Below are positions 58,187 through 61,671 of a stretch of 64,000 bases of DNA, one piece after another. The stretch spans positions 1 to 64,000 of the forward strand of contig JBDTZG010000021.1 in the NCBI GenBank assembly GCA_040005235.1. Reading direction: 5' to 3'. The DNA comes from Acidobacteriota bacterium. Lineage in GTDB: Bacteria > Acidobacteriota > Thermoanaerobaculia > Multivoradales > UBA5704. The notes below the pieces were generated by a model that ran no database searches, had not been told where the DNA came from, and saw only the letters and a program-made list of their open reading frames with translations. Every line of letters starts with the position of its first letter. The stretch's first letter is position 1. The position numbers were made by a program, and so were the translations under genes.

Positions 58187-58354
58187 GTTCAGTTCTCCGT
58201 AGGGGAAGCGCCGAGGGGATGGAGGACTGTAGCGGGCGATTAGGTCGAAAGCGGTCCTAAAGAGGGTCGGGGTCAATAGGGGATGACCGAGCTTGACGCC
58301 GCCGTTCGCACCGGCCACGATAGTCGGGATGCCACTCAACCAAGGAGGCTCCCC

Positions 58355-59122
58355 ATGGAGACACGTCTTCGGAAACCGGGCGAATTCTGTTGGATCAACA
58401 TGTTGACGCCGGAGCCGGAGGTGGCGCGGGAGTTCTTCGCCAGGCTGCTGCGTTGGGAGTATGCCGAAATGCCGGGGATGGGCCATGTGGTGAAGGTCGG
58501 AGGACGGCCGATTGGCGGACTGTTCGATTTGGCATCGCCGCAAACCCCTCCGGGGACTCCGCCGCTGATCGGCGTGATGGTGAAGGTCGAAAGCGCCGAG
58601 GCGACCTGCGAGAAGGCCGTGGGGCTCGGCGGCACGGCGAAGCCGGGGTTCGACATCGCCGAGCAGGGGCGGATGGCGGAGTGCTTCGATCCGAACGGCG
58701 CGGAATTCGACCTATGGGAGCCGAAAAAGGGCCAAGGCACGGATGTCGACGTCACCCTGCACGGTGCGCCGAGCTGGTTTGAGACCATCACGTCCGATCC
58801 GGCCCGCGCCAAGAGGTTCTACTGCGATCTGTTCGGGTGGACCGCCGAAGACAACGTGAGGCCGGAGCTCACCTATACGAGCTTCCAGCTCGACGGCGAA
58901 TACGTCGGGGGGATGATGCCGTTCCTGCCGAAGATGGGGGGCGTCCATCCCCATTGGGGGGTGTATTTCACCGTTGAGGACGTCGACGAGACCGCGCGTT
59001 TGGCTGGCGAGTTGGGTGCGAAGGTGTTCATTCCGGCGCAGGACATCCCCAGAGTCGGCCGGTTCTGCGGCATCTATTCGCCGCAGGGCGTGATGTTCTA
59101 CGCCATTCGATACAACGCCTGA
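58355..59122 (+). CDS. VOC/glyoxalase-family protein (two domains)
   Basis: PG.FCW, APSWFE, FY..LFGW, W.VYF.V.DVD; RBS AAGGAGG. Confidence 0.9.
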   Translation: METRLRKPGEFCWINMLTPEPEVAREFFARLLRWEYAEMPGMGHVVKVGGRPIGGLFDLASPQTPPGTPPLIGVMVKVESAEATCEKAVGLGGTAKPGFDIAEQGRMAECFDPNGAEFDLWEPKKGQGTDVDVTLHGAPSWFETITSDPARAKRFYCDLFGWTAEDNVRPELTYTSFQLDGEYVGGMMPFLPKMGGVHPHWGVYFTVEDVDETARLAGELGAKVFIPAQDIPRVGRFCGIYSPQGVMFYAIRYNA

Positions 59123-59258
59123 GGCGTTCCAGACGGCCGTTTAGAACGGAGACGCGCATTCAGTTCTCCAGCGCACTATAGGTGGCAGAGGCCACCTTGC
59201 ACGCCGGGACTCCGCTCGGTGTTCTTTGGAGGCCCTCTTCCAACGATCAGGAGATGAA

Positions 59259-59426
59259 ATGAAGAAGAAAAACCAGAAAATCATGCTCCACAAAGAGACG
59301 CTACGCGCCCTCGATATGCGGGCTCTGGATCCCGCGGCGGCTGGCGTCTAGACCCTTCGCTGTCAGTACAGCGGCTACGGTACCTGTGGCACCTGTGCTG
59401 AGACCTGCACCACGAATTACTGCTAG
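59259..59426 (+). CDS. RiPP (lanthipeptide-like) precursor interrupted by an in-frame TAG at 59349-59351
   Basis: RBS AGGAG; MKKKNQKIMLHKETLRALDMRALDPAAAGV*TLRCQYSGYGTCGTCAETCTTNYC*; too short for the ORF track. Confidence 0.8.
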
Positions 59427-59438
59427 ACATTGACTCGT

Positions 59439-59464
59439 GACCGGCCCACTGCGGCGGGCCGGTC
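59439..59464. terminator. GC-rich hairpin between convergent genes
   Basis: gaccggccc-N8-gggccggtc, 9-bp perfect stem. Confidence 0.6.
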
Positions 59465-59476
59465 GTCCTTCTCGCC

Positions 59477-60637
59477 CTAGAACGACTTCTGGCCGAAGTT
59501 CATCGCCAGCGCCGCGAGGTCGAGGCCGTCGACGATGTCGTTGCCGTCGAAGTCCGCGGCTCGGAGGAATCGCGTCTCGCCGCGGCGGGCGCCAAAGGAG
59601 AGTGCGAGCGAGATCAGATCCAAACCGTCGACACGGCCATCCTGGTTCAAGTCGCCGGTGAGGAACTTGGTGCCGGCGATGATGAAACGGGTGACTTCGC
59701 GATCGACGGTGTTGGCCGGGCTCGCGAGATCGCGGGAGCGGAAAGCGACTGTGACCACGCCGGTGAAAGGATTCGTCGGACGGTAACTGATCTCCGCCCG
59801 CTGGGCGTCGCCGGAGACGAGTGCGCCCACCTCTTGGCCGTTCACCACCAGGCGGGTCGAGGCGAGGTCGATCCCCTTGCCGAAGTCGAGCAGCGCAAGG
59901 CGGACCGTCACGTCGGCCGGGACGTCCCGGGATTGATCGGCGGGCGCGATCGAACCGACGACCGGCGGGACCTTGTCGGTGGCGGTCAGCTGGTCTGCCC
60001 AAACCTCCGCCATCTTGTCGTAGCCCGCAGCATTCGGATGGAGCTTGTCCAGGCCGCCGCCGTAGAGCGTGGTGAAGGCGTTCGGGGTTTGCCAGAAGAA
60101 GACTTCGAATTGATCGGCGAGCGAGCGCTTCTCGCTCCAGGCGAGGTTACGCAGCGAAGCGGCGAGTTGGGCGGCCACCTTGTTGTCGGCGTCCCGATTC
60201 GCGCTCGGCAGGCGTGGAATGACCGAGGCGTGCACGACTTTGAGCCCGAAGGCCTCGGCCTTGGTGGCGATGCGCTGCAAATTGAACGTGATGGTTTCAA
60301 TCGACACCTGGGCGTTGATGTCGTTCGTCCCTTCCATCAGCAGCAGCTTGTCGGCCGGGTTGTTGCGCAGCACCTGGTCGATGCGGGTGACCCCCTCCGT
60401 GGTCGCCTCGTTGCTCAATCCGGCGTTGATCACCTTTGCGTCGGTCTGGCCGCGCGCGATCAGCAGGTCGTCCAGCCGGCCGGGATAGCCCAGCTCGGAC
60501 AGCGGGCGGGTCGAGGCGTCGCCCACCCCGAAAGTGATGCTGTCGCCGAACGCGATGTAGCGGTTCTGCGCCTGCGCCGCGGCCGGAAGCAGCAGCGCGG
60601 TGGCGATCAGGCCGAGAGAGAGCCCGCGGGCGCGCAT
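59477..60637 (-). CDS. SGNH/GDSL hydrolase with Ig-like and dockerin-like domains
   Basis: FGDSIT, GTND, D.LHPN..GY; GDLNQDGRVDGLD and ADFDGNDIVDGLD. Confidence 0.88.
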   Translation of the reverse strand: MRARGLSLGLIATALLLPAAAQAQNRYIAFGDSITFGVGDASTRPLSELGYPGRLDDLLIARGQTDAKVINAGLSNEATTEGVTRIDQVLRNNPADKLLLMEGTNDINAQVSIETITFNLQRIATKAEAFGLKVVHASVIPRLPSANRDADNKVAAQLAASLRNLAWSEKRSLADQFEVFFWQTPNAFTTLYGGGLDKLHPNAAGYDKMAEVWADQLTATDKVPPVVGSIAPADQSRDVPADVTVRLALLDFGKGIDLASTRLVVNGQEVGALVSGDAQRAEISYRPTNPFTGVVTVAFRSRDLASPANTVDREVTRFIIAGTKFLTGDLNQDGRVDGLDLISLALSFGARRGETRFLRAADFDGNDIVDGLDLAALAMNFGQKSF

Positions 60638-61671
60638 CACGGCTCCTGCCTCCAGCGCGCGGAGAGCTCTGACGGCACGCTTTTTCCTTCGGAGAGCCAA
60701 CGAAACGTGAGAGCGCCCGACGCGGTGGGCATCAGTCGCGGTCGGTCCGCGCGATCGGCGGCGGGGGAGTCGGCGGTCAAGATCGCCGCGCGGCGGAGCG
60801 GTTTGCCCGTGGCATCCGTGTCGATCGCCTCCCAACCGCGCGGCGCGGCGGTGCGGAAGAGAAGTCGAATGCCGTCGGCGGTCTTATCCAGCGTTGGGAA
60901 GACGGATCCCTTCGGTCCCACCGTGCGCGGCGCGGACCAGCGGTTGGCTTGCTCGGTGGATAGCACGGCGGTCATCACCCGGTAGTCGTTGCCGTCGAAG
61001 CTCGCCCAGGAGAGCAGCGCCCCGGAGTCGGTCGAAACGAGCGCGGGCGTGATGTCGGGCACCCTGTTGCCGGGGGCCACGGGATGCGGAGGAGTCCAGG
61101 CGCCGCCCGGCCGGCCGCGGCTCCAGAGGATCTCGTCGTCCTCGCCGTCGAAGGCGCTCCAGGCAAGGACGTAGGAGCCATCGGCGAGGCGCGCCGCAGC
61201 GAGCGCGAGCTGGCTGCCCGAACCGGGAGGCGAAATCGTCCGCGATGCCGACCATCGGCCGTTTTGGAACCGCGCGGCTTTGACCGCTAGCGACCGTTCG
61301 TCCGTCCCTTCAAGCCAGGCGAGCCCGGCGAACCGTGCACCGGCGAGGAGGGCGATCGCGTGCTCCTGAACCGGGGCCGAGGCGGGAGGACCAGAGAGGA
61401 AGCGACGGGGACCGGCGGTGCCCTGGCCGAGAAGGACGAACAGCTCCCGCAGGTCGCCGTGCGGGCGCGTGCCGAGCGCGATCCAGGAGGCATCGGTTCC
61501 CGCGACCGATTCGAGCGCCGCGCCGGCCGGAAGCCGCGGATCGACGATTACGCCGGAATCGAGTGCCAGCCGCTGACCGTCGCGGCCGGCAACCAACGTC
61601 GGCGCGGCGTACGCGGTCGCGGCACTGGCCGCGAGGAGGCAGAAAATCCGGAGCGATTTGGCCTGGAGCAT
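60637..61671 (-). CDS. secreted hypothetical protein
   Basis: Signal peptide; repeated W.AFDG.D motif; coupled to the SGNH gene. Confidence 0.7.
   Translation of the reverse strand: MLQAKSLRIFCLLAASAATAYAAPTLVAGRDGQRLALDSGVIVDPRLPAGAALESVAGTDASWIALGTRPHGDLRELFVLLGQGTAGPRRFLSGPPASAPVQEHAIALLAGARFAGLAWLEGTDERSLAVKAARFQNGRWSASRTISPPGSGSQLALAAARLADGSYVLAWSAFDGEDDEILWSRGRPGGAWTPPHPVAPGNRVPDITPALVSTDSGALLSWASFDGNDYRVMTAVLSTEQANRWSAPRTVGPKGSVFPTLDKTADGIRLLFRTAAPRGWEAIDTDATGKPLRRAAILTADSPAADRADRPRLMPTASGALTFRWLSEGKSVPSELSARWRQEP

Follow-up and report, generated by a model that had tools for sequence, protein, structure and literature searches.

A premature TAG codon between the leader and core of a class I lanthipeptide precursor gene in Acidobacteriota: probable recent inactivation of one copy in a dispersed precursor family

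The locus considered here raises the question of why a small gene with the layout of a lanthipeptide precursor carries an amber codon at the very point where its leader should pass into its core. It lies in a stretch of 64,000 nucleotides, referred to below as the window, which belongs to a MAG of the phylum Acidobacteriota comprising 6.22 Mb in 140 contigs, with a G+C content of 65.9% and a completeness of 100% by marker genes. The first-pass annotation of the window offered four explanations for the codon, namely stop readthrough or recoding, a leader-only peptide acting in trans, a recent nonsense mutation, and a sequencing error. From the comparisons of sequence described here, the window ORF is probably a class I precursor gene (LanA) that has recently lost its function through a TAC-to-TAG nonsense mutation, and thus an ordinary pseudogene; the rival readings of a leaky allele, an artefact or minor variant, a leader-only function and programmed recoding are unlikely even when the four are taken together. 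The features of the locus are as follows.

58283-59122, plus strand: glyoxalase/VOC-family gene, conserved flank (Pfam)
59118-59459, no strand: variable intergenic slot with the precursor cassette (flank alignment to relatives)
59249-59253, plus strand: Shine-Dalgarno-like AGGAG, 5 nt before the ATG at 59259
59259-59348, plus strand: leader coding part, 30 codons, MKKKNQKIMLHKETLRALDMRALDPAAAGV, with an IxLxKx5L motif (IMLHKETLRAL)
59349-59351, plus strand: premature TAG at the putative ancestral Tyr codon, TAC in the two closest homologues
59352-59423, plus strand: core-peptide remnant, predicted to be untranslated, 24 in-frame codons, TLRCQYSGYGTCGTCAETCTTNYC, family-invariant positions kept, no indel
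59424-59426, plus strand: original stop codon TAG of the precursor gene; the same aligned codon ends the homologues
59439-59464, plus strand: GC-rich hairpin between the convergent genes, centroid -22.7 kcal/mol, z -1.89
59477-60835, minus strand: GDSL-lipase/dockerin gene, conserved flank, convergent (Pfam)

Every coordinate given at first pass for the ribosome-binding site, the ATG, the 30-codon leader, both TAG codons, the 24-codon segment and the hairpin is correct, and a recount in the translation of the post-stop segment TLRCQYSGYGTCGTCAETCTTNYC again gives 5 Cys, 7 Ser/Thr and three TC pairs. By eye, a purine-rich AGGAG- or GGAG-like stretch precedes the ATG by about 5 to 9 nt in most of the 11 homologues whose upstream regions were printed. 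The mini-ORF ATG-AAA-TGA that had also been pointed out does exist at 59254-59262 and overlaps the start, but it is missing from all 11 of these printed upstream regions and is for this reason treated as a chance occurrence. The hairpin at 59439-59464 has no T-tract, and 7 of 200 shuffles fold equally well; a consensus scan of 59000-59600 for promoters and terminators returned none of either and did not call it. It may be a terminator that lacks such a tract. A GC-rich upstream element (…cggcgcg…gccggcat…gccgc…), 70 nt 5' of the ATG, is common to the loci L058, L059, L060, L061 and L030 and may be a regulatory hairpin or a promoter-proximal element; the window copy does not possess this element of its close homologues.

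The codons behind the stop belong to the same gene as those in front of it. When leader and core are searched together against the genome by tblastn, as had been proposed at first pass, paralogues are matched across the stop. The read-through frame aligns with the paralogue C121:19168 at E 3e-16 over 56 columns and with the paralogue C98:31516 at E 2e-13, and weaker matches are found on C115, C29 and C21. A profile of three intact relatives matches the window frame from position 1 to 55, a span that includes 1 TAG, with 93.8 bits (E 4.1e-26). Because the read-through frame matches both the paralogues and the profile across the stop, the post-stop segment is homologous and not a chance resemblance. 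In an alignment of seven rows (A1), the window copy agrees with each of the 18 invariant columns (M1, L10, E13, T14, L15, L18, C35, S38, G39, T42, C43, T45, C46, T49, C50, T52, N53 and C55) and shows no indel relative to its two closest homologues. The homologues end at the codon aligned with the second TAG of the window copy, which is TAG in L022, L023 and L026 and TGA in L014, L021 and L027.

The codon expected at the site of the premature stop is indicated by the nearest homologues. Two of these, of the same genus and the same length (G003:C14 and G004:C13), carry TAC exactly at the position of the window's TAG. Mutual identity among the two and the window copy is 69-76%, and the flanking codons align one to one, with …GTC TAC ACG… and …GCC TAC ACG… against …GTC TAG ACC… in the window; in the codon-by-codon comparison the TAC-bearing aligned loci are L021 and L026. 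A search of 5.8 billion proteins found four nearest intact proteins (P0002-P0005) that are 60-67% identical, and all four have Tyr at the stop position, in a junction of the form GG-Y-T-[LAP]-[RH]-CQYSGYGTCGTC…TNYC. The core remnant of the window is identical to the core of P0002 at 22 of 24 positions by our own count. Tyr is also seen by eye in more distant genera (L064, L066, L067 and L076), where GG is followed directly by YT[LA]RCQYSGY, and in some relatives the residue at this position is Phe, Val, Leu or Thr. As the nearest homologues have TAC or Tyr, one C-to-G substitution in a codon for Tyr explains the TAG. No syntenic precursor was found in the slot of 40 relatives by DNA search and flank alignments; since this slot holds other DNA in the relatives, the orthologous codon is not readable and the closest homologues were used, so that the step from TAC to TAG is drawn from paralogues and homologues 60-76% identical rather than from an orthologue. 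No near-identical intact allele is present among the 5.8 billion proteins, in which only a leader-only product and the relatives at 60-67% identity were found. These comparisons support the first-pass suggestion of a recent nonsense mutation, with the correction that the source codon would be TAC (Tyr) and not TCG.

The stop is confined to this copy. A leader HMM, constructed from 24 of the genome's paralogues and used in the search for paralogous precursors that had been recommended, finds 38 distinct leader frames. In 37 of them leader and core form one uninterrupted ORF, 18-52 residues following the leader, as against 0 residues in the window copy. Among the 150 matches listed from 92 genomes of the taxonomic family (312 further family matches lie beyond these 150), the window copy alone has an internal TAG; no homologue has an in-frame TAG at the same site, the nearest having TAC or Tyr and no other TAG being found among the 150 listed. 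Selenocysteine was considered separately for five matches with one TGA, together with a tRNA-SeC, and was rejected, the TGAs being the natural stops of shorter cores.

This distribution bears on the possibility that the 30-residue leader is made deliberately, as a trans activator of, or decoy for, the shared LanB/LanC or the exporter. In vitro, lanthipeptide enzymes can be activated by a leader provided in trans. The leader ORF and its ribosome-binding site are intact, and one LanB apparently serves many precursors, so that a competitor could in principle matter. However, the leader-only form is found in just 1 of 38 frames here and in none of the other 149 listed matches, hence it is not conserved, and the intact homologous core downstream marks a broken full-length gene. 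A leader-only function is therefore highly improbable, and the trans-acting leader suggested at first pass finds no support in a stop unique to this copy.

The base itself is found in more than one assembly. A contig from a soil sample (X1, word depth 16.1) has 0 differences over 58900-59800, and a contig from a root sample (X2, word depth 10.7) has 0 differences over 58900-59522. X1 and X2 are two samples of one study, assembled separately, and either is possibly the source of the MAG. The cassette lies outside the coverage of two further runs, X3 and X4, from which its absence does not follow. The protein collection contains a 30-residue leader-only product (P0006) that is found on 2 contigs. 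An artefact or minor variant, in which the G at 59351 would stem from a faulty assembly or consensus, or would mark a variant strain, while the dominant allele is intact, would agree with the nature of the record as a MAG, with a check made at contig level only, and with X1 or X2 having possibly supplied its DNA. As the two assemblies agree but contigs represent the consensus only and hide minor alleles, random error is ruled out, while a low-frequency intact allele is still compatible. Against this reading stand the 0 differences in both the soil and the root contig at their respective depths, the occurrence of the leader-only P0006 on 2 contigs, and the lack of any near-identical intact protein in the collection, and only a scant probability is assigned to it. 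A sequencing error, also raised at first pass, is likewise unlikely when the contigs of two runs carry the TAG.

Programmed recoding of UAG, by pyrrolysine or by a dedicated suppressor, would open the core with a special residue, and the only observation in its favour is an in-frame TAG with an intact downstream frame. The genome gives no sign of the machinery. None of its 55 tRNAs has a CUA anticodon, and the profiles of PylS_Cterm (TIGR02367) and PylB (TIGR03910) have no match in it, a Methanosarcina control scoring over the cut-off for both; tRNA genes may be missing from a MAG of 140 contigs. Release factor RF1 is present, with 497.5 bits (cut-off 423). TAG is, moreover, a frequent stop, ending 1341 of 3989 open frames of at least 400 residues by a crude count in which non-coding frames are included, and it serves as the gene's own terminator, while the homologues have Tyr at the premature site. 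The searches for PylS, PylB and a CUA tRNA had been recommended at first pass, and with none of them found and a sense codon in the homologues, the recoding alternative is refuted by the criteria set at first pass; the chance left to programmed recoding is vanishingly small. Two tRNA-Tyr(GUA) genes are found in the genome. The ARAGORN predictions also include a tRNA-SeC (TCA) and, in addition to the usual tRNA-His (GTG), another tRNA-His whose anticodon is ATG.

A leaky allele differs from programmed recoding in that near-cognate decoding of UAG would give some full-length precursor, with the ancestral residue regained wherever tRNA-Tyr did the decoding. Bacteria show a basal level of UAG readthrough, and the gene retains its ribosome-binding site, its 24 downstream codons, its frame, its original stop and its invariant residues, in a genome with the two tRNA-Tyr(GUA) genes; the intact downstream core would also fit continued use by leaky readthrough. 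A young mutation, however, predicts the same intact core equally well. RF1 is present, no suppressor tRNA was found among the 55 tRNAs, and the stop appears in no other family member, whether among the 150 listed matches or the 38 frames of the genome, with no sign of selection for it. This reading keeps a slim chance. A very slim one is given to the notion that the amber codon acts as a switch, by which either a trace of lanthipeptide would be made through tRNA-Tyr or a leader-only competitor of the 37 precursors for LanB would be released.

The inactivated gene can be assigned to a family by its leader. In library scans, only the NCBIfam model NF038153 (lant_leader_L1a, class I lanthipeptide) gave a meaningful match; with it the window leader scores 19.1 bits (E 0.0011), just short of the cut-off of 22. 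Applied to the 24 paralogues, the same model matches 16 at E<=0.1, of which 3 are over the cut-off. The genome's own leader HMM, made from these 24 paralogues, gives the window leader 38.0 bits (E 7.8e-9), and Pfam has no match for the precursor or for two paralogues. The LxLxKx5L leader motif is found at residues 8-18 as IMLHKETLRAL, with Ile at the first place. Leaders of relatives end in GG directly before the core, and a recurring core of the form Y-T-x-R-C-Q-Y-S-G-Y-x-T-C-x-T-C-x-x-T-C-x-T-N-Y-C is present in several genera. Leaders with LxLxKx5L that end in Gly-Gly and a C39 protease are described by Walker et al. (2020, PMC7268733) for the class I precursors of Bacteroidetes, pinensin being one of this group. 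The call of a class I pinensin-like precursor made at first pass therefore holds, by the leader motif, the match to NF038153 below its cut-off, and the LanB, LanC and C39-ABC genes of the genome.

These enzymes are encoded away from the window. It had been remarked at first pass that the precursor is an orphan with no modifying enzyme, which is true of the window but not of the genome. The search for LanB and LanC that had been advised yields one LanB and three LanC genes. The LanB is a full-length ORF of 1125 aa on C66, located amid unrelated genes and possessing both domains, PF04738 (Lant_dehydr_N) with about 569 bits and PF14028 (Lant_dehydr_C) with about 220-224 bits; PF04738 has only this one match in the genome. 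Of the three LanC-like genes (PF05147), those on C35 and C115 are directly beside paralogous precursors and that on C8 is elsewhere. A C39-peptidase/ABC exporter of 795 aa is encoded at C66:91769-94153. The LanM dehydratase domain PF13575 has no match in the genome, though the control genomes are silent too, and the enzymes found are of class I. No maturase flanks the cassette, no LanB or LanC match occurs on the contig of the window, and none of six loci of intact homologues in other genomes has a lanthipeptide enzyme within 6 kb.

The third LanC-like gene (G000:C8:30078-31193; L057:7055-8341, minus strand) has no precursor beside it and abuts a gene for a 950-aa M1-family peptidase. This peptidase, which has HEAT repeats (L057:8341-11190), is a candidate leader-trimming protease.

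The precursors themselves are scattered. The 38 leader-bearing small frames, with hypervariable cores rich in Cys, Ser and Thr, lie on about 30 contigs as against the single LanB; examples are C8:154990 and 155328, C18:27157, 27905 and 72418, C35:40922, 41257 and 46520, C121:19168 and C98:31516. Of the 92 genomes of the taxonomic family, 84 contain a LanB match, and 72 contain a precursor match by a profile that represents a single subfamily of cores. LanB accompanies the precursor in every one of these 72, none of the 8 genomes without LanB shows a precursor match, and 12 genomes possess LanB but no match to this profile; related genomes are not independent, so that 72/72 and 8/8 represent a consistent pattern and no statistical test. 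This co-occurrence, along with the adjacency of LanC to other paralogues, suggests that LanB and LanC act on these precursors. No description of a dispersed class I family in Acidobacteriota was found in the literature within reach of the search, beyond which lie most subscription journals, and such precursors might be present in the supplementary tables of Walker et al. 2020. A literature search for broken precursor genes found nothing.

A multi-copy repeat family was encountered as well. A short sequence of about 100-350 bp from L030:11300-11800 matches internally repetitive arrays on more than 15 contigs of the genome (G000) at 70-84% identity, for example at C56:53722-53925, C82:130713-130970, C118:19383-19562 and C75:101-282.

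The surroundings of the window gene show that its presence varies among close relatives. In G003, of the same genus, the alignment to the window, at 93-96%, breaks off after 59117 and resumes at 59460, with 1160 other bases in between, and G007 has 983 other bases in the same slot. The contig of run X4 skips 59114-59476 and has about 1.16 kb between the flanks. Elsewhere, the G003 homologue of the precursor is carried in a 507-bp segment (L028:5829-6336), in place of which the genome of the window has about 26 bp (G000:C112:50146-50172), while the C121 paralogue has a 93%-identical orthologue in G003. As the contents of the slot and the presence of the G003 segment differ in this way, precursor cassettes are gained and lost between species of one genus. 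The slot 59118-59459 looks like a hot spot of cassette exchange, and a young nonsense allele fits the birth-and-death turnover of such cassettes. Regarding the other contents of the slot, that of G003 (L007:2336-3495) includes ORFs of 74 and 96 aa that by eye resemble an addiction-module pair, and that of G007 (L008:2336-3318) includes ORFs of 134 and 167 aa.

With the window ORF read as a recently inactivated LanA copy, the following course of events may be proposed. A large dispersed LanA family would be served in trans by the single LanB, the three LanC and the one C39-ABC exporter, and its intact members would be dehydrated by LanB, cyclised by LanC, and exported and cleaved by the C39-ABC transporter. 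In the window copy, a single C-to-G change would have turned the Tyr codon (TAC) at the first core position into TAG. RF1 would terminate translation at this codon, so that the product would be at most the 30-residue leader, with the core left untranslated, and the copy would be non-functional. The mutation appears to be young, because the 24 downstream codons keep the invariant residues, the frame and the original stop.

Several consequences follow for the study of these peptides. The idea of a non-standard residue placed by an amber codon in a RiPP core does not hold for this gene, a point worth settling to spare others the pursuit. The genomes of this family of Acidobacteriota contain dozens of unclustered class I precursors, a useful background for natural-product mining; tools that rely on gene clusters will overlook them, since a precursor is adjoined by LanC at best, and not in every case. 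The turnover of the precursors is rapid, as seen in slot-specific cassettes, in presence or absence between congeneric species, and in at least one fresh nonsense allele. Finally, the shared Y-T-x-R-C-Q-Y-S-G-Y core is a concrete target for expression with the LanB and LanC of these genomes.

Three known systems invite comparison. With the pyrrolysine type of amber recoding, known from pylTSBCD and the methylamine methyltransferase genes of Methanosarcina, the window gene has in common an in-frame TAG followed by an intact frame. It differs from that system in that PylS, PylB and a tRNA with the CUA anticodon were not found, and in that the premature TAG is not conserved, TAG being also the ordinary stop of the same gene.

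Resemblance to the pinensin-type class I precursors includes the type of leader motif, the GG end of the leader in relatives, and the LanB, LanC and C39-ABC genes of the genome. By motif and genome content, the assignment of the window gene to these Bacteroidetes/pinensin-type class I precursors is supported. Pinensin, according to Walker et al. (2020, PMC7268733), involves a split LanB, as opposed to the full-length LanB found here. The host belongs to Acidobacteriota rather than Bacteroidetes, the precursors are dispersed and not clustered, and the window copy itself is below the cut-off of NF038153 and interrupted by a stop, unlike pinensin-type precursors.

In genome layout, there is a likeness to the prochlorosins and synechococsins, for which many precursors with a shared leader and hypervariable cores, scattered among unrelated genes, are described along with a single modifying enzyme (PMC10783134). 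As in the ProcM and SyncM systems, tens of dispersed shared-leader precursors stand beside a single dehydratase, here 38 frames and one LanB, and by this analogy the LanB of C66 would be promiscuous. The prochlorosins, however, are class II lanthipeptides of marine picocyanobacteria with Nif11-type leaders and a bifunctional LanM, whereas LanB and LanC are separate here. Independently of the stop codon, the acidobacterial family is reminiscent of the combinatorial library of the prochlorosins, transposed to class I enzymes.
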